From positions 1,230 through 65,229 of the forward strand of contig DFFU01000026.1 in assembly GCA_002372315.1 (NCBI GenBank): a stretch of 64,000 nt of DNA. Reading direction: 5' to 3'. The notes beneath the pieces are model-generated. The model ran no database searches, was not told the origin of the DNA, and saw only the letters and a program-made list of their open reading frames with translations. The DNA is from Alphaproteobacteria bacterium UBA3768 (GTDB taxonomy: Bacteria; Pseudomonadota; Alphaproteobacteria; CAAHEQ01; UBA3637). Of this stretch, positions 37,126 to 54,693 are shown one piece after another (the stretch's first letter is position 1; each line of letters starts with the position of its first letter). The position numbers and the translations under genes were made by a program.

Positions 37126-37201
37126 TGGTGGGTGCGACAGGGATTGAACCTGTGACCCCTACCGTGTGAAGGTAATGCTCTTCCTCTGAGCTAAGCACCC
37201 C
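37126..37201 (-). tRNA. tRNA-Val(CAC)-like gene, variant copy (attL side of island)
   Basis: The 3' 56 nt are identical to the tRNA-Val at 54619-54693. The D-arm differs (GCTTAGCTCAGAGGAAGAGC) and base pair 7-66 is a T.C mismatch. It has its own TTGACT-17-TATAAT promoter (revcomp of 37218-37246). Confidence 0.65.
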
Positions 37202-37647: not shown

Positions 37648-38943
37648 ATGGCAACAAAATTAAATCAAGTAATCACACTAAATCAAAAAGCAGTGGAAAA
37701 CTTACCAGTTCCACAAGAAAAGAGTGTCATATACTATGACACCAAAGAAGAGAAATTGTATCTCTTGGTAAGTAAAACAGGAACAAAAACATTTTACCTG
37801 TTATCAAGAGTGAAAAGCAGAGTGGCAAGAATTAAAATTGGCAGATTTCCTGACATTAAAGTTGAAAAGGCAAGAGAAATTGCCCAACAATTAAAAAGTT
37901 CTATTGCCACAGGTAATGACCCAGAGAAGAACAAACTTGCTCTTAAAGGGGATATTACCTTCAAGGAACTTTTTGATATGTATATTGAAAAGTATGCCAA
38001 AGACAACCTAAAATCTTGGAAGATTGGGCAGTATGTAATCAACAAACATTGCCAAAAGTTCTTCAACAGAAAATTGACAACCATAACCAACAAGGAACTC
38101 AAAGAGTTCATTGAGGAAGTGGCAACCAACAGCACTGATACTGCCAACACATTGCTGAAAAAACTGAAAGGCATTTTTAACAAAGGCATTGAATGGGAAA
38201 TCTACAAGGGGGACAACCCTGTCAATAACATCAAATCATACAAAGAAAACAGAAGAGATAGGTTCTTACAACCTATTGAACTGGGTGATTTCTTTGATGT
38301 CTTAAAGGATGAACCAGAGGATTTGAGGGATATTGTCATCCTTGGATTAAACACAGCAGCAAGAAAAAGCAATATTCTGTCTATGGAATGGAATGAACTG
38401 GACCTTGCTAACAATCTTTGGAGAATACCTGCCCATAAATCCAAAAATGGTGATGTAATGATTATTCCATTGTTGGATGAGGCAAAGAATGTTTTATTAA
38501 AAAGGAAAAGTGAAGATTTCCAAAGAAAATATCATTGTCATACAAGACAAGGAGAGAAACTAAAAAATCTTTTTGCCACTTATGTTTTCCCTTCTGTTAG
38601 GAATAAAGAAGGACACTTAATGGGATTTAGAAGGTTATGGGATGCTTTCAGAAAGCACTTTTTTGAGAAGTGTAAGTTATCAAAAGGTGATTTGGTTTTC
38701 CATGATTTAAGAAGAACTCTTGCTTCATTTGAAGCACTGACTGGGCAATATTCTTTACAGATTATTGGAAAATCATTAGGGCATAAATCTACTGCTTCAA
38801 CAGAAATCTATGCCAGATTACTAACAGAACCAGTTAGAGCATCCATGAATGCTGCCACAGATTTGATGAAAAAACAGATGGATTTTCCAACATTATCTCA
38901 AAAGGTAGAAGATTATCCAAGGTTATCCAAGAACAATGAGTAA
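37648..38943 (+). CDS. int: tyrosine-type site-specific integrase (phage integrase family)
   Basis: C-terminal catalytic box HDLRRTLASFEAL...GHKSTASTEIYARL (R, H-x-x-R, Y). N-terminal SAM-like/arm-binding domain. Adjacent to the tRNA-derived att site. Confidence 0.9.
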   Translation: MATKLNQVITLNQKAVENLPVPQEKSVIYYDTKEEKLYLLVSKTGTKTFYLLSRVKSRVARIKIGRFPDIKVEKAREIAQQLKSSIATGNDPEKNKLALKGDITFKELFDMYIEKYAKDNLKSWKIGQYVINKHCQKFFNRKLTTITNKELKEFIEEVATNSTDTANTLLKKLKGIFNKGIEWEIYKGDNPVNNIKSYKENRRDRFLQPIELGDFFDVLKDEPEDLRDIVILGLNTAARKSNILSMEWNELDLANNLWRIPAHKSKNGDVMIIPLLDEAKNVLLKRKSEDFQRKYHCHTRQGEKLKNLFATYVFPSVRNKEGHLMGFRRLWDAFRKHFFEKCKLSKGDLVFHDLRRTLASFEALTGQYSLQIIGKSLGHKSTASTEIYARLLTEPVRASMNAATDLMKKQMDFPTLSQKVEDYPRLSKNNE

Positions 38944-39013: not shown

Positions 39014-39199
39014 ATGACTAAATTACTTACACCAGAAGAAACAGCAGAACTACTGAATGTTTCAATCAAATTACTCAATGATTGGAGATACAATCAGAAG
39101 GTAAATCTCCCCTATGTCAAAATTGGGAAATTGGTGAGATACAAATTGTCTGATGTTGAACAATTCATACAAGGATGTTGTGTTCAAATGAGTTTTTAA
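39014..39199 (+). CDS. AlpA-family phage/island transcriptional regulator or excisionase (HTH)
   Basis: 61 aa, LLTPEETAELLNVSIKLLNDWRYNQKVNLPYVKIGKLVRYKLSDVEQFI, the classic AlpA/Xis pattern. Confidence 0.65.
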   Translation: MTKLLTPEETAELLNVSIKLLNDWRYNQKVNLPYVKIGKLVRYKLSDVEQFIQGCCVQMSF

Positions 39200-41857: not shown

Positions 41858-42313
41858 CCCATTTTGGGATATGCCTTATTTTATAAGGGGTTTGATGGTG
41901 TTTTTTCTTCCTATAATAGTATTATAATAGAATTAAAAAAGAACTATTATAATAGTTCTTTTTCTTCTTTTTGTATAATAGCAAACTTGTTTAATGGGGA
42001 ATAATAGAGGTAGTTAAATAAAGGGAGATTAAATAACCCAAATTAAACAAGCAAATAAGTTAGTCCAATTAAAAAGGAAAATAATATGGGGATATTAAAC
42101 AAGGGAAAATAATATAGGGGCATTAGTCAGGTAAAATAATGAAACTGGAATAATGGAAACTGGGTGATGTGGGGTTGTTCTGCTGGGGTAGTTTTTTTGT
42201 GAGGGGACACCTCTAAATGAGATAAATAGTTATGAGTAATTTTGAACTCTTTTTTCATTACAAACCCCACCATTTCTGGTGGGGATTTTTATGAAAAATA
42301 ATTAAAATATTTT

Positions 42314-42345
42314 TGACTTTCTATGGGTAAATATGGTATAATATA
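42314..42345 (+). promoter_or_regulatory. sigma70-like promoter TTGACT-18-TATAAT upstream of the restriction gene region
   Basis: tttgactttctatgggtaaatatggtataat. Confidence 0.4.
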
Positions 42346-42351
42346 AATACA

Positions 42352-42465
42352 ATAAAAGAGAAATAAAACATCATCTTTTTTTGTTTTATCTAATATAATT
42401 TTCATTGTCATAAAACCAAGTTAATTGTTTTACCTGCCAGTAAAATGGCAGGTTTTTAGTATTTT
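42352..42465 (+). ncRNA. candidate short transcript or leader (about 110 nt) ending in a Rho-independent terminator (CCTGCCA gtaaaa TGGCAGG + U-run at 42431-42465)
   Basis: A promoter immediately upstream and an intrinsic terminator about 105 nt before the restriction-gene ATG at 42573. A second hairpin+T-run (CCCCACC atttct GGTGGGG) at 42266-42295. Confidence 0.3.
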
Positions 42466-42572
42466 TTTATATGAGATGTCAAAATCTGCCATCCTAAAAA
42501 CTTTTTAGTTTGCTTTTTTTATCATAATAGTTTAACATATCCCAATGATTAAATCAACACAAGGGAGTTGTT

Positions 42573-45500
42573 ATGACCAAACCAATAGTTTCATTTAATG
42601 ATGTTTTATCCAAGTTTAGAGCAGAAGCATTCTCTGAAAGGGATAAAGGGTTCAGATTTGAAAAACTGATGAAGAAATATCTTCAAATTGAACCTCAATA
42701 CAAAAACATCTTAAAGACAGTGTGGTTATGGAATGAGTTTCCATTTAGAAATGATTTTAGTGGAAAAGATACAGGAATTGACTTGGTTGCTCAAACAGTT
42801 GAAGGAGATTACTGGGCAATTCAATGTAAATGTTTCAGAGAGGATGCTTATATTGACAAATCAGGTGTTGATAGTTTCTTATCCACATCCAGTAAAAGTT
42901 TCATGGGAGAAGATGGTAAAAGCAAACAATTTACCCAAAGATTATGGATTTCTACAACAAATCATTGGAATAGTGAAGCAGAAGAAACCATTAAAAACCA
43001 AAATCCCCCACTTCACAGGATTAGTTTAACAGATTTACAAAACACATCTGATTACATTGACTGGGATGAATTGGTCAATGGTATGGAAACAAGTGCCTTA
43101 AAAGAGAAAAAACATCCCAGAGACCACCAAATCCAAGCAATCAACAACTTCCATGAACATTTTAAAAATGCTGATAGAGGTAAGTTGATTATGGCATGTG
43201 GGACAGGTAAGACCTATACATCCTTAAAGATTGCTGAAAATGAAACTGATGGGAAAGGAACAATCCTGTTTTTAGTGCCATCTATTGCTTTATTGGGTCA
43301 AACTTTAAGAGAATGGAGTGCCCAAGCAGAAAAACCCATTTATCCTATCTGTATCTGTTCTGATGCTACTGTTGGACAGGATGAAGATGATGATATAAGT
43401 GTAGTTGATTTAGCATTACCTGCCAGCACAAATGTGAGAAGCATTGTCAATCAGTTTGAAGTTGCTAAAAAGAACCAGAAGGGAATGATAGTTGTATTCT
43501 CAACTTACCAATCCATAGATGTTATTTCCAAAGCACAAGCAGAATTAAATAAAAGACAGAAGGATAACTGTATCTTTGACTTGATTATCTGTGATGAAGC
43601 ACACAGAACCACTGGAATTATCTTAAAGGATAAAGAAAAAGGTGGTTATGATGAAAAATCCTTTACCAAAGTCCATGACAATAAATGGGTTGAAGCAAAG
43701 AAAAGATTGTATATGACAGCAACTCCAAGATTGTATAAGGAAGATGCCAAGAAAAAAGCAGAAGAAGGTGATGCTATACTTTGTTCAATGGATGATGAAG
43801 CAATTTATGGACAAGAAGTTTATAGAATTGGATTTGGTGAAGCAGTTGATAAGAGGTTGTTATCAGATTACAAGGTCTTGGTTTTAACATTAAAAGAAGA
43901 ACAAATCCCAGCAGCATTTAGAAGTATCATCAACTCTGGTAAGAAAGATAAAGAAATTACCACAGATGATGTCAGTAAGTTGATTGGATGTATAAATGCT
44001 CTGTCTAAAAGGGTTATAGAAGCAGATAAAGAGTTCAATGATGATAGAGCACCCATGAGGAAAGCAGTTGCTTTCTGCCAAAGCATTAAAGCATCCAAAA
44101 TGATTACTGGGATGTTTAATGAGCATAAAGATACCTATTACAATTCTCTCCCACAGGAAGAAAGAGAAAAGTTGGTGGGTGTAGAAGCAAAGCATATAGA
44201 TGGAACAATGGGAGCAAGTCAAAGAGATGAATTATTGACTTGGTTAAAAGATACCCCAGAAGATGGTAAAGAATGCCATATTTTAACCAATGTGAAGTGT
44301 TTGTCAGAAGGTGTTGATGTGCCATCACTGGATGCTGTGATGTTCTTGGCAGCAAGAAACAGTCAGGTTGATGTGGTCCAATCTGTTGGAAGAGTTATGA
44401 GAACAGCACCTGATAAGAAGTATGGATACATCATTATTCCTGTAATGATACCAGAAGGAATTAAACCAGAAGAAGCATTGGAGGATAACAAAAGATATGC
44501 TGTTATTTGGACAGTATTGAATGCTTTAAGAGCACATGATGACAGATTTGATGCTGAAATCAACAAAATCAACTTGAATAAGAAGAAAGGTGATAGAATA
44601 AAAGTCATTGGTGTTGGTAATGGTGAAGATGATGGGGATGGTAGTGGAAAACCAACCAGTAGAGACACCCAATTAGAAAGACAATTGACTTTACCATTAG
44701 CAGAATTACAAGAATTACAAAATGTGATTTATGCCAAAATGGTTCAAAAGGTTGGCAGTAAGAGATATTGGGTTCAATGGGCACAAGATGTTGCCAAGAT
44801 TGCTCAAAGATATATTGTTAAAATCAACCATCTAATTGAAACAGATACTAAATCACAAGAAGTATTCAATAAGTTCTTAAAAGGTTTAAGAAAGAACATC
44901 AACCCATCTGTATCCAAAGATGAAGCAATCCAAATGTTGGCACAGCATTTGATTACCCAACCTGTGTTTGAAGCATTGTTTGAAAATTATTCATTTGTAT
45001 CCAACAACCCTGTATCTAAATCCTTACAAAAGATGGTGGATTTATTGGAAAAGCAAGCAATGGATGAAGAAGGTGAGAAGACCCTTCATAAGTTCTATGA
45101 ATCTGTTAAAGAGAGAGTTAAAGGGATTGACAATGCTGATGGCAGACAGAAGATTATTATTGAACTGTATGATAAGTTCTTCAAAACTGCTTTCCCAAAG
45201 GTTGTGGAACAGTTGGGAATTGTCTATACACCAATAGAAGTAGTTGATTTTATAAACAATTCTGTTGCCCAAGTATTGAAAAAAGAGTTTAACAGGAACT
45301 TGTCTGATGAAAATATTCATATCCTTGACCCATTTACAGGGACAGGAACATTTATTACGAGGTTGATTCAAACTGGTTTAATTGATAAGGAAGCATTACC
45401 AAGAAAGTATGCCAAAGAACTTCATGCCAATGAGATTGTGCTGTTGGCATATTACATTGCTTCAATCAATATTGAAAATGCTTACCATGATGCTGTGGGT

Positions 45501-47465
45501 ATGGAAAATGGTTATAAGTCATTTGATGGTATTTGTTTGACAGATACCTTCCAATTGGGGGAAACAGATGAAGCAACCAACCTGTTTGATGAAATGCTCC
45601 CACAAAACTCTGAAAGAGTGATGGAACAAAAGAAATTACCTGTCAGGGTAATCATTGGGAATCCACCTTATTCCATTGGTCAGAAGTCAGCAAATGATAA
45701 TGCCCAAAACCAATCTTATCCAAAATTGGATAGAAGAGTTGAAGAAACTTATGCTAAATATTCCAATGCTGCTTTGAACAAAGGATTATATGATAGTTAT
45801 ATCAAAGCATTCAGGTGGTCATCTGATAGAATTGATGAAAAGAATGGAGGTATAATTGCCTTTGTATCAAATGGTAGTTGGATTGATGGGCAATCTATGG
45901 ATGGTTTAAGAAAAGCATTTGAAAAAGAGTTTAATTCCATATATGTCTTTAATATGAGAGGAAATACCAGAACAAGTGGAGAAACAGCAAGAAAAGAAGG
46001 GGGACAAACATTTGGAAGTGGATGTAGAACAACTGTTGCTATCACAATCTTGGTTAAAAATCCAAAAGTTGAAACAGAAAAAGCAACCATCTATTATACA
46101 CAAGTTCCTGATTATCAAAGTAGAGAGGACAAATTAGCATTATTAGCACACTATAAGGATATTACCAATAGTAGGATACAATTTAAGGTCCTAAAACCCA
46201 ATGAACATGGGGATTGGTTAAATCAAAGAAGTGATTTATTCAGTTCCTTCATACCCGTTGAACCTGATAAAAAGTTCAATCTTAAATCAACAAGTATGTT
46301 TAATTTAAATGTTATTGGAGTAGCAACTAATAGAGATGCCTGGGTGTATAATTATTCACAAAGAAATTTGGAAAGTAATGTGAGAAAAATGGTTGATTTT
46401 TATAATGAACAAAGAAAAGGGTATCAAACAGCATTACAAAAAAACAACTTGTTGAAAGTTGAGGATTTTATTGATATAGACCCAAAGAAAATTAGTTGGA
46501 CAAGAAGTTTAAGAAATCAAGTTAAAAATAACAAAGAAAATACATATCAGTCAGATGTTTATTATGAAGGTTGTTACAGACCATATTGTAAGCAACATTT
46601 GTATTATGAAAACTCATTTATTGAAAGTCCTGGTTTAAGTAAGCAATTATTCCCAACATCACAGCATAAAAATATGTGTATTGCTGTATCTGGCATTGGT
46701 GCTGGAAAAGATTTCTCAACTTTAATTGTAAATCAAGTTCCTTGCTTGGATATGGTTGAGAAAGGTCAATGCTTTCCACTCTATTACTATGAAAAGAATG
46801 AAGGGAATATTGGAACATTGTTTGATGATGGGAAAGACCAATATATCAGAAGAGATGGTATAACTGACTTTATCTTGGAACAATGTAGAACTAGATATGG
46901 ACATAAAGTATCCAAAGAGGATATCTTCTATTATGTCTATGGATTATTACATTCCAATGATTACAGAACCCAATTTGCTGCTGATTTGAAGAAAATGTTA
47001 CCCAGAATACCATTAGTGGATATTCCAAATGATTTCTTTGAGTTTAGTAAGGCAGGAAGACAATTGGCAGAACTTCATTTGAACTATGAAACTGTGCCTG
47101 CTTATCCAGATGTAGAGGTTATTGGTGAAGAAAAAGGAAACTTCCATGTGGATAAGATAACATTTGCCAAAAAGGATGGTGAAGTTGATAAAACAACCTT
47201 GATTTACAATTCTTCCATCAAAATTACCAATATCCCATTAGAAGCATATGACTATGTTGTCAATGGAAAGTCAGCAATAGAATGGATTATGGACAGATAC
47301 CAAGTCAAAGTTGATAAGGATAGTGGTATCAAAAATGACCCAAATGACTGGGGATTAGAACATAATAATCCCAGATACATCTTGGATCTGATTTTATCAG
47401 TTATAACAGTCAGTATGGCAACCAATGAAATAGTTAAAAAATTACCAAAGTTGGATTTGAAATAA
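42573..47465 (+). CDS. Type ISP-like single-polypeptide restriction-modification enzyme: Mrr-type PD-(D/E)xK nuclease + SF2 DEAH helicase-like motor + gamma-class N6-adenine methyltransferase + C-terminal target-recognition region (1630 aa)
   Basis: aa 60-90 GIDLVAQ...YWAIQCKCF (Mrr catalytic core). Walker A ACGTGKT (aa about 208), DEAH box LIICDEAHRT (aa about 341), motif VI QSVGRVMR (aa about 603). MTase motif I DPFTGTGTF (aa about 919) and motif IV NPPY (aa about 1030). GGIIAFVSNGSW and YVFNMRGN blocks typical of Eco57I/LlaGI-like MTases. AGA/AGG-rich island codon usage. Confidence 0.8.
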   Translation: MTKPIVSFNDVLSKFRAEAFSERDKGFRFEKLMKKYLQIEPQYKNILKTVWLWNEFPFRNDFSGKDTGIDLVAQTVEGDYWAIQCKCFREDAYIDKSGVDSFLSTSSKSFMGEDGKSKQFTQRLWISTTNHWNSEAEETIKNQNPPLHRISLTDLQNTSDYIDWDELVNGMETSALKEKKHPRDHQIQAINNFHEHFKNADRGKLIMACGTGKTYTSLKIAENETDGKGTILFLVPSIALLGQTLREWSAQAEKPIYPICICSDATVGQDEDDDISVVDLALPASTNVRSIVNQFEVAKKNQKGMIVVFSTYQSIDVISKAQAELNKRQKDNCIFDLIICDEAHRTTGIILKDKEKGGYDEKSFTKVHDNKWVEAKKRLYMTATPRLYKEDAKKKAEEGDAILCSMDDEAIYGQEVYRIGFGEAVDKRLLSDYKVLVLTLKEEQIPAAFRSIINSGKKDKEITTDDVSKLIGCINALSKRVIEADKEFNDDRAPMRKAVAFCQSIKASKMITGMFNEHKDTYYNSLPQEEREKLVGVEAKHIDGTMGASQRDELLTWLKDTPEDGKECHILTNVKCLSEGVDVPSLDAVMFLAARNSQVDVVQSVGRVMRTAPDKKYGYIIIPVMIPEGIKPEEALEDNKRYAVIWTVLNALRAHDDRFDAEINKINLNKKKGDRIKVIGVGNGEDDGDGSGKPTSRDTQLERQLTLPLAELQELQNVIYAKMVQKVGSKRYWVQWAQDVAKIAQRYIVKINHLIETDTKSQEVFNKFLKGLRKNINPSVSKDEAIQMLAQHLITQPVFEALFENYSFVSNNPVSKSLQKMVDLLEKQAMDEEGEKTLHKFYESVKERVKGIDNADGRQKIIIELYDKFFKTAFPKVVEQLGIVYTPIEVVDFINNSVAQVLKKEFNRNLSDENIHILDPFTGTGTFITRLIQTGLIDKEALPRKYAKELHANEIVLLAYYIASINIENAYHDAVGMENGYKSFDGICLTDTFQLGETDEATNLFDEMLPQNSERVMEQKKLPVRVIIGNPPYSIGQKSANDNAQNQSYPKLDRRVEETYAKYSNAALNKGLYDSYIKAFRWSSDRIDEKNGGIIAFVSNGSWIDGQSMDGLRKAFEKEFNSIYVFNMRGNTRTSGETARKEGGQTFGSGCRTTVAITILVKNPKVETEKATIYYTQVPDYQSREDKLALLAHYKDITNSRIQFKVLKPNEHGDWLNQRSDLFSSFIPVEPDKKFNLKSTSMFNLNVIGVATNRDAWVYNYSQRNLESNVRKMVDFYNEQRKGYQTALQKNNLLKVEDFIDIDPKKISWTRSLRNQVKNNKENTYQSDVYYEGCYRPYCKQHLYYENSFIESPGLSKQLFPTSQHKNMCIAVSGIGAGKDFSTLIVNQVPCLDMVEKGQCFPLYYYEKNEGNIGTLFDDGKDQYIRRDGITDFILEQCRTRYGHKVSKEDIFYYVYGLLHSNDYRTQFAADLKKMLPRIPLVDIPNDFFEFSKAGRQLAELHLNYETVPAYPDVEVIGEEKGNFHVDKITFAKKDGEVDKTTLIYNSSIKITNIPLEAYDYVVNGKSAIEWIMDRYQVKVDKDSGIKNDPNDWGLEHNNPRYILDLILSVITVSMATNEIVKKLPKLDLK

Positions 47466-48862
47466 TGGATATAAATGACTTTCTAACAGATTTACTTAAA
47501 AAAGATTTCAAAAAGAAATCTAAAGGAAAGTCAGCATCCAGTGCCATCAACGCCATTAAAACTGTATCAAGTCCTATGGAAGATAAGGATTATAAGTTAG
47601 ATAAGGCACAAGAAGAACTGTTTGACTTGATTGAAAACACCCATACAAATGTATTCATTCAAGGTCAGGCAGGAACAGGAAAATCAACTTTTATCAACCA
47701 CTTAAAGAAATATTCTGATAAAAGGATCAGAATTGTCTGTCCAACAGCAGTTGCTGCCATCAATGTTGGTGGAACAACCATACATTCTTTATTCAAATTA
47801 CCATTCTCTGATTTTTTTATCTTTGATGATCTATTAAAAGAAAAAAGACAGAAACTTAAATCCATCTTGAATAAGACAGATTTACTCATAATTGATGAAG
47901 TTTCTATGGTTAGACCAGATATGTTGGATATTATAGACCTGCTATCCAGACAAGCAAAAGGTAAGGATGAACCATTTGGTGGATTACAGATGCTTCTGAT
48001 AGGTGATTTATGCCAATTACCGCCAGTAATTAAATCCAATGCTTACCATATCTTTAAGGAAGCATATGGACATAGAAATCCATATTTCTTTGATGCCAAC
48101 TCTTATAAAGCAGGAAACTTTGAAAAAATTGAACTGACAAAGGTTTATAGACAATCTGACAAAGAATTATTGAAAAATCTTATCAGGGTTAGGGAAAACA
48201 AAGAGGTTGATGAAGCAGTTGAATACTTTAATACCTGTAAGATTGATGATGAAGATGTCCTCAATACTGCTATGACTATCACTCCTTATAAACAAGTAGC
48301 AGAAAACATCAACCAAAAGAGATTGGGAGAATTAGAAACTCCTGTTCATACTTATGTTTGCCAAACCAAAGGAACATTTGATGAAGCAAAGGAATGTCCT
48401 TCTCCCAGAGTTTTAACATTAAAAGAAGGTGCTTTGGTTATCTTTAATAAGAATAACCCACCGTCTTGGATAAATGGAACAAGTGGAATTATTGAGAAAT
48501 TGGAAGATGATGCTATTACTGTAAAGGTCTTAAAAACTGGTGAAAGTGTTGCTGTTAAAAGAGAAGAATGGAAAAGTTATCAGTATGATTATGACAGAGA
48601 AACAGGAACTGTTGTTGAAAAAGAAGTTGGGACATTTATTCAATTCCCATTACAACTGGGATATGCTCTGACTATTCATAAAGCACAAGGTAAAACTTTG
48701 GATAAAGTTGTAATAGACCTGAATAGAGGAGCATTTGCTCATGGTCAATTATATGTTGCTTTAAGTAGAACCAGAAAGAAAGCAGATATTCATTTAACTA
48801 AAAGAATTGATGTATCTGATATTATTATGGATGATAGAATTGTTGAGTTTATGGGGAAATAA
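47465..48862 (+). CDS. PIF1/RecD-like SF1B DNA helicase
   Basis: Walker A GQAGTGKST, Walker B LLIIDEVSMV, the PIF1 signature PFGGLQMLLIGDLCQLPPV, and C-terminal LTIHKAQGKTLDKVVIDL. The start codon overlaps the upstream stop (ATAATGG). Confidence 0.8.
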   Translation: MDINDFLTDLLKKDFKKKSKGKSASSAINAIKTVSSPMEDKDYKLDKAQEELFDLIENTHTNVFIQGQAGTGKSTFINHLKKYSDKRIRIVCPTAVAAINVGGTTIHSLFKLPFSDFFIFDDLLKEKRQKLKSILNKTDLLIIDEVSMVRPDMLDIIDLLSRQAKGKDEPFGGLQMLLIGDLCQLPPVIKSNAYHIFKEAYGHRNPYFFDANSYKAGNFEKIELTKVYRQSDKELLKNLIRVRENKEVDEAVEYFNTCKIDDEDVLNTAMTITPYKQVAENINQKRLGELETPVHTYVCQTKGTFDEAKECPSPRVLTLKEGALVIFNKNNPPSWINGTSGIIEKLEDDAITVKVLKTGESVAVKREEWKSYQYDYDRETGTVVEKEVGTFIQFPLQLGYALTIHKAQGKTLDKVVIDLNRGAFAHGQLYVALSRTRKKADIHLTKRIDVSDIIMDDRIVEFMGK

Positions 48863-48863
48863 G

Positions 48864-49676
48864 ATGCTAAAAGTTGGAACAAGAGAAGAAATTAAACAAT
48901 TCTTAAAGGAACATAATACAGGATTTTATGTGTATATCCTGTATCATCCAAACAAAACCCCATTCTATGTAGGTAAAGGAAAAGGAAAAGGAAATAGAGT
49001 ATTTCAGCATGAATATGAAGTAGAACATTCCCAGTATAATAATCCATATAAAATCAACACAATTAAAAAAATATACAGATTGGGGGGAACTGTTGGATAT
49101 GGTATTGACAATATCTTTGAACAGGAAGCAGATGCCTTTGCCAGAGAAAGAGAATTAGTAAAACAAATTGGGAGACCCCCATTAACCAATTTAACTGATG
49201 GAGGAGAAGGTGCTGTCAATTTAGACCTTATCTCAAAACAAAAACATAATGATACTCTTTGGGGAGATACTGGGGATAATCCAAGAAGTATTATAAACAG
49301 AACCTTCCAAGAATTAGCACCAGTAAAATCTGTGCCTATAAAACCACTCCAACAGTTCAAAGCAGTCCATCTAACTCCTCATCCAAAGGCAAGAAATTAT
49401 AGTCCAAGAGAAGCAGCAGCACTCTTTATCAGTTCTGTCTTTAATGGGGTTTTAATTGAAGAAGGAGCAATTATTCCAAGATTGGTCAATATCAAAGGGG
49501 TAGATGGAATTATAGAAAATGGAGTTGGAAGAGATATTTTAGTTGCTGGTTGGGCAACCATTATTCCAAATGATGACCCAACATTAGAACAATTCCAACT
49601 AACTAAAAGTGGTAAGGATGCTATCCAAAGATACATCAAGGATTTACCAAAAGAAGTGCTCAACAGGTATATGTAA
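48864..49676 (+). CDS. GIY-YIG nuclease domain protein
   Basis: N-terminus GFYVYILYHPNKTPFYVGKGKGKGNRVFQHEYE matches GIY...YIG...R...H spacing, and a Glu follows about 40 aa later (FEQEADAF). The ATG at 48864 comes right after the helicase stop; the track ORF begins at 48807. Confidence 0.65.
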   Translation: MLKVGTREEIKQFLKEHNTGFYVYILYHPNKTPFYVGKGKGKGNRVFQHEYEVEHSQYNNPYKINTIKKIYRLGGTVGYGIDNIFEQEADAFARERELVKQIGRPPLTNLTDGGEGAVNLDLISKQKHNDTLWGDTGDNPRSIINRTFQELAPVKSVPIKPLQQFKAVHLTPHPKARNYSPREAAALFISSVFNGVLIEEGAIIPRLVNIKGVDGIIENGVGRDILVAGWATIIPNDDPTLEQFQLTKSGKDAIQRYIKDLPKEVLNRYM

Positions 49677-49687
49677 AGGAGAATAAT

Positions 49688-49894
49688 ATGGGATTTTTTA
49701 GTGAATTATTTGGTGCTATTATGAACCAGAACAATAATTATGGAGATCAAAATTACCATAGAGGAGAACCCACAGCAGAAGATTACATTAGGTCTGGTGA
49801 AATAGAAAAAGACAACTATGATGATGGCAAAAGGAACACCATAGATGAGGATGGTGGTTTGTCTGATAGTTGGGACAAAGAGGATAGAGAATAA
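49688..49894 (+). CDS. small acidic hypothetical protein (68 aa)
   Basis: ORF with an SD (AAGGAGAA) directly after the GIY-YIG gene. Asp/Glu-rich. Confidence 0.3.
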   Translation: MGFFSELFGAIMNQNNNYGDQNYHRGEPTAEDYIRSGEIEKDNYDDGKRNTIDEDGGLSDSWDKEDRE

Positions 49895-50503
49895 TTAAAG
49901 GTTTCCTATCCCCACTTTCTTCAAATATCTACACATAGTTGTTGGATGAACTCCCATTATCTTGGATATTTTTGCTTGTGATATACCTTTATCAAGCAAT
50001 TTTTTTATCTTCTGTCTGCTCTTGGATAGTTTTAATTCTCTTGTCTTTGAACCCAATGGTCTTCCTAATTTTACATTCTGTTCTTTTAATTTATTTAATG
50101 CCATTCTAATTCTGGTGGAGATGTGGTCTCTTTCAATTTCAGCAGCAAGACCAAAGGTATATGCCATTATTTTGGATTGTAAATCATTCTTAAAGTTATA
50201 ATTCTCTTTAATACTGATAATTTTAATATCTTTATTAATAGCATCCTGTAAAATACCTGCCAGTTCATAAAGATTTCTTGCTAACCTACTAATCTCTGTA
50301 ATAATAATGGTATCCCCAGCAACTGCTGTTTCCATCAACTTACCTAATTCTCTTTTACTCAAAGGTTTTCTACTGCTAATGTTTTCCTCTATCCATCTAT
50401 CCACTTTAATCCTGTTGTTTTTAGCATATTCAACAATAGCAAAGTGTTGGTTGGAACAGGTTTGTTTCTTTTCCATAGAACACCTACAATATCCATAAAT
50501 CAT
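49895..50503 (-). CDS. serine recombinase (resolvase/invertase family)
   Basis: N-terminal catalytic domain IYGYCRCSMEKKQ (Ser nucleophile), the SRLARN motif, and a C-terminal HTH (ISQAKISKIMGVHPTTMCRYL). Confidence 0.85.
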   Translation of the reverse strand: MIYGYCRCSMEKKQTCSNQHFAIVEYAKNNRIKVDRWIEENISSRKPLSKRELGKLMETAVAGDTIIITEISRLARNLYELAGILQDAINKDIKIISIKENYNFKNDLQSKIMAYTFGLAAEIERDHISTRIRMALNKLKEQNVKLGRPLGSKTRELKLSKSRQKIKKLLDKGISQAKISKIMGVHPTTMCRYLKKVGIGNL

Positions 50504-50742
50504 AATTCACCTCTTTTTATTTTATTTATTGAAAATACAAGATTTTTTGTTGTAAGAAGTGTTAGCAAATAATCATTTGTTTTCTCAATGACTTATACAA
50601 TTCCTAATTACAACAAGATACAAATTGCCACATATTCCTTATTTTTCAATATATTCAATGGAATAATGAGGTGTTTTAGATACCTCTTTTTTATCTAAAA
50701 AAGTATTTGCTTTTTAACAAATGTTTTTGTAATATTCTGGGT

Positions 50743-51195
50743 ATGACTAAAACTTGTTGCTTTTTTGGTAATGCTACTATCTGGAATGTGAAGGAAATTG
50801 CTGATAAAATTAGGAAAGCAGTAGTTGATTTAATAACCAATAAGCAAGTTGATACTTTCTTGGTTGGGATTAAAGGTGAGTTTGAAACATTATCACATAA
50901 AATATTACAGGAAATAAGATTAGATTATCCAAATATTAAAATTATGCTGGTAATTGCTTATGAAAGAGACCTTCATAAATGTGGTTATCACTTTGATGAC
51001 TTTTATTATCCACCATTAGCAGAAGTTGGGTATAGGGGATGGAGCATTGCTAAAAGGAATGATTGGATTGTAGAACAAACAGATTATGTGATTGCTTGTA
51101 ATCAGTATCAAGGTAGAGCATACAACTATTGTAAAAAAGCAAAAAACAAAGGAAAAACCATTATTGAGATAGGAAAACAAGATGAACCTGTTTAA
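50743..51195 (+). CDS. SLOG-superfamily protein (DUF1273/YpsA-like)
   Basis: VDTFLVGIKGEFETLSHKILQEIRLDYPNIKIMLVIAYE ... DYVIAC ... KTIIEI matches the YpsA-like Rossmannoid pattern. Confidence 0.45.
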   Translation: MTKTCCFFGNATIWNVKEIADKIRKAVVDLITNKQVDTFLVGIKGEFETLSHKILQEIRLDYPNIKIMLVIAYERDLHKCGYHFDDFYYPPLAEVGYRGWSIAKRNDWIVEQTDYVIACNQYQGRAYNYCKKAKNKGKTIIEIGKQDEPV

Positions 51196-51364
51196 TTTTT
51201 TTAAGAAGAAACCTGAAAGCACATTAGATAAAGCATTAAAGGAAGTTGAAAGAGTTGGTAAGCAACAACCAGTAAAGGGAGTTGAGGCATTGGATGAATA
51301 TTTCAAAGCACATCCCTATAAAATGAAAAAGATAAAAAGTAAAAAAAGAACTAAAAAGCAATAA
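51182..51364 (+). CDS. small basic hypothetical protein (60 aa)
   Basis: ORF overlapping the end of the SLOG gene. Lys-rich C-terminus. Confidence 0.25.
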   Translation: MNLFNFFKKKPESTLDKALKEVERVGKQQPVKGVEALDEYFKAHPYKMKKIKSKKRTKKQ

Positions 51365-51412
51365 ATTACATCTTTTAACCAATAAATACTTATACCAACA
51401 AAGGATATAAGT

Positions 51413-51826
51413 ATGATGGATTATGATGATGTAGATATAGTGTTAGAAAACTTACCACTTTTATTACAAAATAAGGATAAGATATTAAATAATAAAACTT
51501 ATTCAAAATGTAAAATAAGAGGTTCAGGTATATTTTTTAAGAATAAAAACATCTATATTGGTTTTACATTAGGCAATTTGCTTAAATTATGGTCCAGTCC
51601 TTGTTCCTGTTGGAAGTTTAGTAAGTATTATACCTATAAGATGACCTTGTTTGGCAATGGTGAAGCAGATATATTCTCCAAAGCAGTTGATGGTTCTTAT
51701 CAGCAATCTTTAATAGATGGGGATTTAATTGTTCCACATATTGAAGATGCTGTAAGAATAGGTGAAATGGTGCTAATTCCAAAATGTATAGATGATGTAA
51801 TTAAAGAATTAAAGGAAAGTAGATGA
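51413..51826 (+). CDS. hypothetical protein
   Basis: 137-aa ORF whose stop overlaps the next start (ATGA). Confidence 0.4.
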   Translation: MMDYDDVDIVLENLPLLLQNKDKILNNKTYSKCKIRGSGIFFKNKNIYIGFTLGNLLKLWSSPCSCWKFSKYYTYKMTLFGNGEADIFSKAVDGSYQQSLIDGDLIVPHIEDAVRIGEMVLIPKCIDDVIKELKESR

Positions 51827-52257
51827 AATTTGATTTTAGTGAGATAAAGAAGTTTTTACAGGAAAAAGCAGATATTGCCAAAGTGGTATCTATATCACCA
51901 TCATTTGGTAGTGAATTTACCACAGATTTAAGTAATGCTACACTTATACCAAAGAAAAAAGAACCAACTATGAGTGATGAAGAACTACAATTCCTTGAAT
52001 TATGCCAAAAACTTTTAAGAAAACTTGGTTTCATAAAAACAAGTTATGACTTTTCAGAGCAATTCATGGGTAAGAGTAAGCATTATTATTCAATGCTTTT
52101 AAGTGAAGGTAGGCAATGTTCCATAGATGGATTACACAATTTAATTAAAAATATTGAAACATTGAATGATGTTCCTGCCACTTCATCAAAATATTTGGAT
52201 GATTTAATAGAAAAAGGAAATAAACTTTTAACCAAAAGGTTGCTGAAATACTTTTAA
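51823..52257 (+). CDS. hypothetical protein
   Basis: 144-aa ORF translationally coupled to 51413-51826. Confidence 0.4.
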   Translation: MKFDFSEIKKFLQEKADIAKVVSISPSFGSEFTTDLSNATLIPKKKEPTMSDEELQFLELCQKLLRKLGFIKTSYDFSEQFMGKSKHYYSMLLSEGRQCSIDGLHNLIKNIETLNDVPATSSKYLDDLIEKGNKLLTKRLLKYF

Positions 52258-52412: not shown

Positions 52413-53015
52413 TTGCGATATTGTAATGCGACTTTTAAGAGTTCAAATTTACAAAAAAAGGAGCATTCAATGGATTTTGGGTATAAAAGAGTATCAACCA
52501 TAGACCAATCAACCGAAAGACAATTGGAAGGAATTAAACTGGACCGAGTTTTTGAAGATAAACTATCTGGTAAGGATAGGAATAGACCACAATTGGACTT
52601 GCTGTTGTCAATTTTAAGAGAAGGAGACACAATCCACATTCATAGTATGGATAGGTTAGCAAGGAACACCAGAGACCTACTCAATTTGGTGGAAGAAATT
52701 ACAGGAAAGAATTGTAAAGTCATCTTTCACACAGAACATCTGTCCTTTGAACCTAATAAAACAGACCCATACCAACAGTTGATGATGACAATGTTGGGAG
52801 CAGTAGCACAATTGGAGAGAAGTTTAATCCTTCAAAGACAGAAGGAGGGGATTGCCATTGCCAAGAGTAAAGGAAGATTTAAGGGAGGGAAAAGTAAGTT
52901 ATCAGCAGAACAGGTGCTGGAATTAAAGGAATTATCCAAAACCAACTCAATTACATCTCTGGCAAAAAAGTTTGGTATCACCAGACCTACTTGCTATGCT
53001 TATTTGAAAGGATAA
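52413..53015 (+). CDS. serine recombinase (resolvase/invertase, Hin/Gin-like)
   Basis: FGYKRVSTIDQ catalytic Ser, the DRLARN motif, and a C-terminal HTH (ITSLAKKFGITRPTCYAYL). Confidence 0.85.
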   Translation: MRYCNATFKSSNLQKKEHSMDFGYKRVSTIDQSTERQLEGIKLDRVFEDKLSGKDRNRPQLDLLLSILREGDTIHIHSMDRLARNTRDLLNLVEEITGKNCKVIFHTEHLSFEPNKTDPYQQLMMTMLGAVAQLERSLILQRQKEGIAIAKSKGRFKGGKSKLSAEQVLELKELSKTNSITSLAKKFGITRPTCYAYLKG

Positions 53016-54618: not shown

Positions 54619-54693
54619 TGGTGGGTGCGACAGGGATTGAACCTGTGACCCCTACCGTGTGAAGGTAATGCTCTCCCGCTGAGCTACGCACCC
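54619..54693 (-). tRNA. tRNA-Val (anticodon CAC), canonical copy (attR side)
   Basis: Revcomp GGGTGCGTAGCTCAGCGGGAGAGCATTACCTTCACACGGTAGGGGTCACAGGTTCAATCCCTGTCGCACCCACCA. Perfect acceptor stem. TTGACA-17-TAGAAT promoter upstream (revcomp of 54711-54739). Confidence 0.9.

Follow-up and report, generated by a model that had tools for sequence, protein, structure and literature searches.

The stretch of DNA analysed in this study (64,000 nucleotides, hereafter the window) carries a block of four plus-strand genes at positions 42573-49894, encoding a restriction-modification enzyme of Type ISP, a helicase of the Pif1 family, a GIY-YIG nuclease and a small acidic protein. A first-pass annotation had taken the first three genes for one anti-phage operon, and the locus raises the question of whether they constitute a single machine or separate modules gathered at one site. 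We consider it probable, at roughly 60%, that the four genes make up a layered defence cassette of separate modules, carried by an integrative island at tRNA-Val, and not one three-part machine. This reading builds on the gene identities, the architecture, the modularity and the recurrent gene association observed in the window and in related loci (L001 and so on).

The first gene (42573-47465, plus strand) encoded a Type ISP enzyme of 1630 amino acids, in which the five Type ISP domains were present in the order known from LlaGI and LlaBIII, as had been supposed. The Mrr-family nuclease domain (residues 39-170; 42687-43082, plus strand), with the D...QxK residues in GIDLVAQ..AIQCK, matched Pfam Mrr_cat_2 at 7.8e-43. 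The SF2 helicase-like ATPase (residues 180-611; 43110-44405, plus strand), with GTGKT, DEAH and QSVGRVMR, matched ResIII (1.1e-25) and Helicase_C (1.5e-11). The coupler (residues 732-856; 44766-45140, plus strand), lying between the ATPase and the methyltransferase, matched the full profile PF22240 ISP_coupler at 1.1e-48. The gamma-class N6-adenine methyltransferase core (45318-45935, plus strand) contained DPFTGTGTF and NPPY, and its matches to Eco57I (24.9 bits; cut-off 25.3) and UPF0020 (20.4 bits; cut-off 22.3) were below threshold; the region aligned with LlaBIII, and the half comprising the methyltransferase and target-recognition domain gave 472 bits against 7lo5. The C-terminal specificity domain (residues 1242-1606; 46296-47390, plus strand) matched PF18135 Type_ISP_C at 4.2e-113 over profile positions 2-342 of 342. 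All motifs that the first-pass annotation had quoted were found in the translations. LlaBIII (4xqk) aligned end to end with residues 7-1629 at 1224 bits, with the nuclease motifs in register, LlaGI was likewise collinear, and the PADLOC model REase_MTase_IIG matched over the full length at 2250 bits.

LlaBIII and LlaGI, both from Lactococcus plasmids (PDB 4xqk, 5ffj), thus have the same order of Mrr nuclease, SF2 ATPase, coupler, gamma-class methyltransferase and target-recognition domain, and every catalytic motif is also found in the window enzyme, which differs from them in its target-recognition region. A hypervariable stretch at residues ~1101-1400 (45873-46772, plus strand), probably involved in target recognition, showed 23-62% identity in three of four close relatives and 58-80% in the fourth (L008), whereas the flanking bins were 80-100% identical. 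This focus of divergence on residues ~1100-1400 is what would be expected if a functional enzyme were changing its specificity. Taken alone, the restriction enzyme is of an ordinary kind, complete and, judging from its sequence, apparently intact. LlaBIII and LlaGI are treated as single-gene systems, whereas the window enzyme is coupled to a Pif1 gene.

The four open reading frames were confirmed at the coordinates given here, together with their tight coupling. The ISP stop codon TAA (47463-47465) and the Pif1 start codon ATG (47465) have one base in common (TAATG), the Pif1 stop codon TAA (48860-48862) lies 1 nt ahead of the GIY-YIG start codon at 48864, and AAGGAG stands 7 nt ahead of the ATG of the acidic ORF at 49688. 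The ATG at 48864 was backed by the alignment of homologues, which did not support the TTG at 48807 given in the list of open reading frames. The best promoter-like site before the block (TTGACT-18-TATAAT, TG-extended; 42313-42342, plus strand) agreed at 11 of 12 consensus positions, a match to the consensus only; no other strong plus-strand promoter-like site was found ahead of the ISP gene, and no plus-strand terminator-like site between the genes of the block. Downstream of this site, the ISP leader contains a hairpin followed by a T-run (42432-42453, plus strand) ahead of the start codon; this element was not kept in the relatives, whose homology begins at 42565. These signals suggested that the whole block is probably transcribed as a single unit from a promoter near 42313.

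The second gene (47465-48862, plus strand) encoded a protein of 465 amino acids whose assignment as a Pif1-family SF1B helicase held. It matched Pfam PIF1 (PF05970) at 5.6e-27, and residues ~43-464 aligned with solved bacterial Pif1 structures at E values of 1e-69 to 6e-91. The SF1 motifs I-VI and the Pif1 signature region between motifs II and III were present (PFGGLQMLLIGDLCQLPPV), and the helicase motif residues were invariant across 30 homologues. The SF1B core and all motifs, including the Pif1 signature, are shared with the bacterial Pif1s of solved structure (Bacteroides 5ftb/5fhd, Thermus 6s3e and 8bns/8bnv), but the clade of the window protein adds an N-terminal peptide, MDINDFLTDLLKKDFK (47465-47524, plus strand), and has a fixed place behind restriction genes. 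The peptide was kept in the Pif1s linked to ISP enzymes, to a split enzyme and to Type III systems, was missing from Pif1s without a restriction partner, and had an HEPN domain in its place in L171. The bacterial Pif1 proteins studied so far have no assigned cellular role, a question that goes back to 2011 or earlier (PMC3113762), and no link between them and restriction genes was reported in the literature searched. A separately encoded helicase-family ATPase that teams with a nuclease is described for enzymes of the CglI/NgoAVII type; there, H.CglI is an obligate subunit and belongs to the SF2 DEAD-family ATPases (PMC5737866), whereas the window enzyme contains an SF2 motor of its own, the additional gene encoding an SF1B Pif1.

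The arrangement of an ISP gene followed by Pif1 recurred in five diverged ISP lineages. The gap or overlap between the two genes was 0-3 nt in the window, L006, L172 and L177; a 54-codon ORF sits between them in L008, and a PIN gene in L002, where the order is ISP...Pif1-GIY-YIG. Identity to the window fell in parallel for the ISP enzyme (84, 85, 74 and 71%) and Pif1 (89, 80, 72 and 71%), the pair constituting a discrete 6.3-kb unit that co-diverged down to ~71% identity. DNA homology between the loci starts 8 nt ahead of the ISP start codon and stops, in L177 and L178, 2 nt past the Pif1 stop codon, and these boundaries were sharp and common amid differing flanks, that of L008 consisting of housekeeping genes. 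Pif1s of the same clade were also found behind three other restriction architectures, namely a MmeI-like Type IIG enzyme in L171 (where Pif1 is fused to HEPN_AbiU2 and the genes overlap by 8 nt), a split pair of an Eco57I-type methyltransferase and a T5orf172-ResIII protein in L181 (directly 3'), and a Type III Mod with a Res-like protein in L182-185 (directly 3'). In the NJ tree the restriction-linked Pif1s formed one clade, with the Type III-linked ones next to it, and the ~10 independent contexts covered by the analysis were all on low-GC (30-44% GC) metagenomic contigs. In L171 the first 27 codons of an ISP gene were kept ahead of the MmeI-like gene at 97.5% nucleotide identity, a scar indicating that the upstream gene was replaced and Pif1 retained.

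One clade member (L266, 70% identity) lies behind an 807-aa protein without a family match, with no recognisable restriction gene, and Pif1s at 61% identity or less lie amid housekeeping genes, often in conserved synteny. In a scan of genome contigs with the Pif1 alignment, which did not recover the genome of the window itself, no Pif1 exceeded 61% identity, and an ISP gene was present only at L013, in convergent orientation; the Pif1s of viral contigs reached at most 53% and those of plasmids less than 40%, all of them too distant to bear on the restriction-linked clade. Among 80 more distant ISP homologues (52-69% identity) none had Pif1 downstream, and two distant ISP loci, L101 (5-nt gap) and L124, had an unrelated Pif1 on the same strand just upstream of the ISP gene. 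The gene-neighbourhood survey that the first-pass annotation had suggested bore out the recurrence of Pif1 beside ISP genes, whereas the GIY-YIG gene was absent at most ISP-Pif1 loci. The repeated finding of Pif1 with ISP genes of five lineages, and with three further restriction architectures, supports a real gene link between Pif1 and restriction, which looks new as far as the literature searched shows.

The alternative that survives best, though we hold it to be unlikely, is that Pif1 is an independent gene, either a defence gene in its own right or of housekeeping type, which was co-located with restriction genes through a recombination hot spot of the island without functional coupling. 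This would agree with the many unrelated genes taken up by the slot 3' of ISP genes, with the mechanistic diversity of the partner enzymes, with the confinement of all contexts to low-GC contigs, with the lack of a recognisable restriction partner in L266, and with the scar in L171, where Pif1 may have served as the homology arm for a swap of the upstream gene. Mere neighbourhood is, however, hard to reconcile with a tight coupling that was kept or re-created with four types of upstream gene, with the co-divergence of the ISP enzyme and Pif1 and the common boundaries of the unit in different flanks, with an N-terminal peptide common only to restriction-linked Pif1s, or with the independent adjoining of other Pif1 genes to distant ISP loci. 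The shared ancestry of one type of island, combined with upstream-gene swaps at a recombination hot spot, could likewise give rise to the observed association with no functional coupling of Pif1.

The third gene (48864-49676, plus strand) encoded a nuclease of 270 amino acids with a CMoRE-type GIY-YIG catalytic domain (~residues 16-114) and a C-terminal winged-helix-like domain. The GIY-YIG assignment was upheld by the profile LEM-3_GIY-YIG (27.9 bits; cut-off 27) and by the fold of the AF2 model (pLDDT 87.6), and the catalytic residues Y22, Y35, R45, H49 and E88 were invariant in 55 homologues. The acidic ORF (49688-49894, plus strand; 68 amino acids, pI 4.2, 18 D/E), for which profile searches gave no family match, accompanies the GIY-YIG gene in relatives, with homologues behind that gene in L001 (70% identity) and L004 (73%). 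L004 has no Pif1; there, a methyltransferase and a ResIII protein (63% identical to those of L181) are followed by the GIY-YIG gene (59%) and the acidic ORF. The GIY-YIG nuclease stands on its own in L005, survives in L006 only as a remnant of 49 codons, and is absent from L008, L172, L177, L171, L181 and L183. The GIY-YIG gene with its acidic ORF is a separate, independently mobile module. A 28-nt tandem repeat at 42073-42128 shows 75-79% identity to the start region of the acidic ORF, which may be due to chance.

The best match of gene 3 in both sequence and fold was CMoRE/PD-T4-3, a type IV enzyme of E. coli (9u75, 9u7u; PMC12923530) characterised by modification-dependent DNA cleavage and by phage protection from a single gene. 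Both are two-domain proteins of about 260-270 amino acids with the same N-terminal GIY-YIG subtype and its extra tyrosine, the GIYxY-YIG motif of the CMoRE study (PMC12923530) being present as the variant GFYVY...FYVGKG. The match spans only ~100-119 residues of gene 3, however; its C-terminal domain is winged-helix-like and does not align to the 5hmC-binding domain, and it has a conserved acidic companion ORF, unlike CMoRE. An identification of gene 3 as PD-T4-3/CMoRE was rejected, since the C-terminal reader domain for modified cytosine (5hmC/5ghmC) is not shared. Whether gene 3 might instead be a free-standing homing endonuclease, a selfish insertion behind a restriction operon and not a defence nuclease, was also considered and appears doubtful. 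For this reading, large phage contigs often carry the GIY-YIG nuclease domain, and the gene is located behind different genes with minimal spacers. A scan of viral contigs with the GIY-YIG alignment detected six full-length homologues, on high-GC contigs. Homing endonucleases of the I-TevI type have a GIY-YIG domain, a flexible linker and a C-terminal DNA-binding domain; gene 3 has a GIY-YIG domain followed by a C-terminal winged-helix-like domain. Against this reading, the full-length family including the C-terminal domain was kept at 38-72% identity (mostly ~45%) as single genes in many Alphaproteobacteria, among solved structures its nearest relative is a restriction enzyme, Type IV nucleases (GmrSD_N) fill the same slot behind other ISP genes, and a conserved companion ORF is atypical of homing genes.

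The block is located on an island bounded by two tRNA-Val(cac) genes on the minus strand, at 37126-37200 on the left and 54619-54693 on the right, the two being 95% identical over a 79-nt repeat. Next to the left end are a tyrosine integrase (37648-38943, plus strand; Phage_integrase, Arm-DNA-bind_3) and an HTH_17 excisionase-like ORF (39014-39199). AGA and AGG accounted for 98% of the arginine codons in the island genes and 100% in the four-gene block, compared with 22% in the flanking genes, in agreement with the earlier description of a tRNA-associated island with foreign codon usage. Repeats that could serve as recombination sites were sought around the block; apart from the tRNA-Val duplication, there were only weak AT-rich matches. 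A small serine recombinase of the resolvase/invertase type (49895-50503, minus strand; Resolvase, 2.3e-28, and an HTH) abuts the block in convergent orientation, and homologues of it flank the restriction-Pif1 cassettes of L001, L006, L171, L178 and L181.

A further reading, which we regard as improbable, is that Pif1 serves to move or replicate the cassette or island, partnered with the serine recombinase and not part of defence. Pif1-like helicases drive Helitron-type elements, and Helraiser was among the solved-structure matches of gene 2. Pif1 has a small resolvase gene behind it, in convergent orientation, in the window (past the GIY-YIG gene and acidic ORF), L001, L171, L177-180 and L181, and so do the more distant Pif1s of L016 and L017, where there is no restriction gene, and resolvase genes bracket the cassettes of L006, L178 and L181. 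Nevertheless, Pif1 occurs without an adjacent resolvase in L008, L172 and L183, the flanking resolvases are just 29-86% identical, with the homology between loci ending at the Pif1 stop codon, and the HEPN fusion suits defence more than mobility.

The proposal of a dedicated three-gene system, in which the ISP enzyme, Pif1 and the GIY-YIG nuclease are obligate partners and the helicase and the second nuclease make up a second effector arm of the restriction enzyme, would explain the overlapping or 1-nt junctions, the lack of an internal terminator-like site and the similar gene order of L002, but it was not supported and is the least probable reading of all, as the GIY-YIG gene is missing from L008, L172, L177, L171, L181 and L183 and a remnant in L006, occurs with the acidic ORF behind another restriction system without Pif1 (L004) or alone (L005), L002 has a PIN gene between ISP and Pif1, and none of the 80 distant ISP homologues has Pif1 downstream.

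For the layered cassette, homology to LlaBIII and LlaGI suggests that the ISP enzyme would add its methyl mark to a single strand of an asymmetric site, move along unmodified DNA at the expense of ATP, and cut when two enzymes collide head-on. We infer every biochemical step of the Pif1 and GIY-YIG modules. Pif1, a predicted 5'-3' helicase of a clade passed on together with restriction genes, would be an accessory acting on the same invading DNA; in the most likely version, it would load onto the nicks or 5' tails that restriction produces and unwind them, so that the DNA could no longer be resealed or replicated. At variant loci, an effector fused to Pif1 or encoded next to it (HEPN, PIN, NUDIX or GIY-YIG) would receive the substrate from the helicase. 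The GIY-YIG gene, placed in the variable slot that follows restriction genes, would most likely encode a second, restriction-like nuclease, which the acidic protein may modulate. MmeI-type enzymes do not translocate, and the differing action of the partner enzymes argues against one specific physical mechanism for Pif1.

A survey of the slot took in the ISP homologues whose downstream flank was 1.5 kb or longer, counting genes of at least 150 amino acids on the same strand within 60 nt, and an unrelated gene was found directly 3' in 35 of 64. Type ISP enzymes had been described as stand-alone single-polypeptide systems; they are single polypeptides, but their standing alone has to be qualified. 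The slot genes were mostly unrelated to one another and included SIR2, AAA_13, KAP NTPase, GmrSD_N, HNH, TIR, Fic and LmuB-like proteins. In EcoprrI-PrrC and the Type I restriction-linked (rlo) genes, a second defence gene is reportedly placed within or attached to a restriction operon, and AAA_13, found here 3' of ISP genes, is presumably the family of PrrC and RloC. The likeness lies in the attachment of an effector-type gene to a restriction operon, as seen here in the adjacency, the coupling and the diversity of genes 3' of ISP; the systems there are of Type I with anticodon nucleases, and in the EcoprrI-PrrC logic the restriction enzyme keeps the effector latent until phage anti-restriction releases it, whereas the recurrent partner here is a Pif1 helicase. 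On this comparison, the slot pattern suggests a layered or guarded immunity like that of some Type I systems.

We tentatively propose, as a possibility going beyond the gene link itself, that the Pif1 clade is a dedicated accessory of restriction enzymes (ISP, IIG, split IIG-like and Type III) recruited by its N-terminal peptide, an undescribed two-component architecture, and that second-line effectors, dependent on the ISP enzyme or guarding it, generally dock at the position 3' of ISP genes. The occurrence of one Pif1 clade behind four restriction architectures, together with a scar of partner replacement, is unusual with respect to the literature searched. The ISP genes, usually called stand-alone, carry a hypervariable and often defence-type 3' gene in about half of the sampled homologues, and this slot could be mined for new defence genes. 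If the Pif1 clade is indeed a dedicated restriction accessory, this would be the first physiological role assigned to a prokaryotic Pif1.

The first-pass annotation had placed four ORFs on the plus strand at 42573-49894, and all of them were found exactly at those positions. The stop codon (47463-47465) of the gene for the Type ISP restriction-modification enzyme (ISP; 1630 aa, 42573-47465) shares its last base with the start codon of the Pif1-family helicase gene (465 aa, 47465-48862) in the sequence TAATG. A single base separates the Pif1 stop codon (48860-48862) from the ATG at 48864, the start favoured by homologue alignment, of the GIY-YIG nuclease gene (270 aa, 48864-49676). The small acidic ORF of 68 aa (49688-49894) is preceded by an AAGGAG ribosome-binding site, and the next base after its stop already belongs to a convergent serine recombinase gene. 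The sole strong promoter-like site on the plus strand was located at 42313-42342 and no terminator-like site was found between the genes of the block, so that a single transcript is plausible. The leader between this promoter-like site and the ISP start contains a terminator-like hairpin with a T-run (42432-42453), which may be an attenuator or nothing. Also upstream of the ISP gene, two tandem 28-nt units (42073-42128) showed 75-79% identity to 49675-49702, where the acidic ORF has its ribosome-binding site and start; as the DNA is AT-rich, this likeness may be due to chance.

The assignment of the first gene to the Type ISP enzymes was upheld by its domains, by full-length alignment and by the presence of all catalytic motifs. 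Strong Pfam matches were obtained for Mrr_cat_2, ResIII, Helicase_C, ISP_coupler and Type_ISP_C, with the methyltransferase region scoring just below the Eco57I cut-off, and the PADLOC model for single-chain restriction-methyltransferases matched the full length with 2250 bits. The protein aligned with the known Type ISP enzymes LlaBIII and LlaGI over residues 7-1629 and 174-1629, respectively, and represents a new addition to a known family. Identity among close relatives was 80-100% in most 100-residue bins. At residues ~1100-1400 it fell to 23-62% in three of four close relatives and was 58-80% in the locus L008, the pattern expected if target specificity is changing. The enzyme would protect host DNA through methylation of one strand of its recognition site, and would cut unmodified DNA following ATP-driven translocation and collision.

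The second gene encodes a Pif1-family helicase with all motifs conserved, and solved bacterial Pif1 structures matched it with E-values down to 6e-91. About ten genomic contexts of its close relatives, all on low-GC contigs, were compared (L-numbers denote related loci from other contigs or genomes). In L006, L008, L177 and L172, identity to the window was 84, 85, 74 and 71% for ISP and 89, 80, 72 and 71% for Pif1, respectively, the two values tracking each other. The Pif1 gene followed the ISP gene after a 3-nt gap in L006, a 1-nt gap in both L177 and L172, and a 54-codon ORF in L008. In L002 (Pif1 83% identical over the whole protein, 91% by local tblastn), the order was ISP, a PIN-domain gene of 356 codons, Pif1 and GIY-YIG. 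Pif1 was preceded by other restriction genes in L171 (76%), where an MmeI-like Type IIG enzyme overlapped a HEPN_AbiU2-Pif1 fusion by 8 nt, in L181 (70%), with an Eco57I-type methyltransferase and a T5orf172-ResIII protein, and in L182-185 (65%), with a Type III Mod and a Res-like protein. L266 (70%) carried an 807-aa protein with no family match, Pif1 and NUDIX in this order, 1.4 kb from a Type I system, and the Helicobacter locus L267 (61%) placed Pif1 among housekeeping genes.

Nucleotide homology among the ISP-Pif1 loci sets in 8 nt upstream of the ISP ATG and, in L177/L178, ends 2 nt past the Pif1 stop. Judged by these start and end points, ISP and Pif1 are a discrete 6.3-kb unit in differing flanks, which include housekeeping genes in L008. 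In L171 the first 27 ISP codons survive (545-628, 97.5% nucleotide identity) and end in a stop codon just in front of the MmeI-like Type IIG gene, and the first ~44 Pif1 codons are swapped for the HEPN_AbiU2 domain. The restriction gene has evidently been replaced here with Pif1 retained, the 27-codon stretch being the scar. All restriction-linked Pif1s fell into one clade of the neighbour-joining tree; the sequences linked to Type III systems and that from Helicobacter lay immediately beside this clade. The N-terminal peptide MDIxDFLxxLL..KDF is common to restriction-linked Pif1s and absent in those without such partners; the HEPN domain of L171 stands in its place. The restriction link was lost below about 61% identity to the window. 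Among 80 Pif1 loci of species-representative genomes, just one had an ISP gene near the distant Pif1, in convergent orientation; sampled neighbours of distant Pif1s were sulfate permeases, TPR proteins, kinases and similar. Comparative genomics showed Pif1 to be inherited together with restriction genes.

Pif1 homologues of gut Alphaproteobacteria genomes (L020-L057, about 47-54% identity) lie in a conserved chromosomal neighbourhood: opposite-strand genes of 128, 180 and 585 aa follow downstream, and a large gene (2000-2900 aa) precedes them upstream of Pif1; this conservation suggests a core, non-defence role for the clade. Separately, in L181 (2497-7910) and L004 (1-3629) the gene for an Eco57I-type methyltransferase of 703 aa precedes one for a T5orf172/MUG113-ResIII protein of about 1100 aa. 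Both halves match one PADLOC REase_MTase_IIG model, and the pair appears related to single-chain Type IIG/ISP-like enzymes but split in two, with Pif1 attached in L181 and the GIY-YIG module in L004.

The reverse survey covered 80 full-length ISP homologues (52-69% identity) with their flanks. Pif1 was downstream of ISP in none of the 80, and unrelated Pif1-family genes were upstream on the same strand in two (L101, 5-nt gap; L124, two genes between), which by rough judgement rather than a computed probability is above chance expectation, because Pif1 genes are rare in bacterial genomes. A tightly adjoining downstream gene (same strand, at least 150 aa, at most 60 nt from the ISP stop) was present in 35 of the 64 metagenomic loci among L091-L170 whose downstream flank was 1.5 kb or longer, and most such genes were mutually unrelated. 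Their families included AAA_13, SIR2_2, DUF3644, Peptidase_S58, DUF488, NADAR, Metallophos, AAA_15/21, KAP NTPase, HNH, GmrSD_N (two families), Fic, DprA/SLOG and a ThsB-like TIR protein. PADLOC matches included LmuB, SIR2, AriA-like and several candidate-system proteins, and many genes 3' of ISP in the surveyed loci had no Pfam match. As the coupled genes are mostly unrelated and often of defence type, Type ISP genes seem to have, immediately on their 3' side, a variable slot that takes up defence-type cargo. That Pif1 and the restriction gene are mere neighbours at a hot spot is rather unlikely.

The island that surrounds the block measures 17.4 kb and has a tRNA-Val(cac) copy at either end (37126-37200 and 54619-54693); genes for an integrase and an excisionase-like protein are situated at its left end. 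AGA/AGG accounted for 98% of arginine codons in island genes versus 22% in flanking genes. It is very unlikely that Pif1 is part of the mobility machinery. Small serine recombinase genes (~200 aa, Resolvase + HTH_7) were found at 49895-50503 and 52413-53015, and also in L006, L171, L178 and L181. They punctuate the islands, bracketing restriction-Pif1 cassettes and neighbouring gene groups, which suggests cassettes bounded by recombinase genes. Between the former gene (49895-50503, minus strand) and plus-strand genes at 50707-52257, a ~135-nt segment (core about 50582-50716, within 50574-50724) has the inverted repeats CATTTGTT / AACAAATG on its two sides. It is reversed in L001 (98% identical as reverse complement) and L006 (71%) with both flanks collinear, and looks like a phase-variable invertible switch. 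The next cassette, at 50707-52257, encodes a YpsA/SLOG-like protein (a weak match of 23 bits, cut-off 27.7), two small unknown proteins and a member of the DUF6626 family, which is also found next to related cassettes in L001 and L178.

The third gene belongs to a family of full-length 270-300-aa proteins widespread in Alphaproteobacteria; its members share a conserved C-terminal domain and show no variation at Y22, Y35, R45, H49 and E88. The AlphaFold model (pLDDT 87.6) predicted two domains and a disordered linker. Likeness to the type IV restriction endonuclease CMoRE / PD-T4-3, the closest match, was limited to the nuclease domain; the additional tyrosine in the GIYxY-YIG motif is shared as well. 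In L004, GIY-YIG (59%) and the acidic ORF (73%) come after the methyltransferase and the T5orf172-ResIII protein, the latter with 63% identity to its L181 counterpart, and Pif1 is absent. The GIY-YIG gene of L006 is cut to 49 codons and followed by an unrelated 218-codon gene, and L005 carries a lone 48% homologue adjoining an integrase. Comparative genomics showed GIY-YIG and the acidic ORF to be a separately mobile add-on, and the three-gene operon proposed in the first-pass annotation is, as an obligate system of ISP, Pif1 and GIY-YIG, highly improbable.

A link of Pif1 helicases to restriction systems was not found in the literature searched, such absence being no proof of novelty, and a review of prokaryotic Pif1 helicases gives their roles as unknown and does not mention restriction (PMC3113762). 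Pif1 would act on the same foreign DNA as the restriction enzyme, in the simplest version by unwinding from nicks or ends made by restriction. It may also be the DNA-sensing motor of an effector that is fused to it or encoded next to it, namely HEPN (L171), PIN (L002), NUDIX (L266) or GIY-YIG (the window). Eukaryotic Pif1-family helicases clear protein barriers, and by analogy Pif1 might strip tightly bound restriction complexes off host DNA. The odds that Pif1 and the restriction enzyme are truly linked in function are put at roughly even. For the modular reading as a whole, we estimate a probability of about 0.6 that the ISP-Pif1 unit with its separate GIY-YIG/acidic-ORF module constitutes a layered defence cassette.
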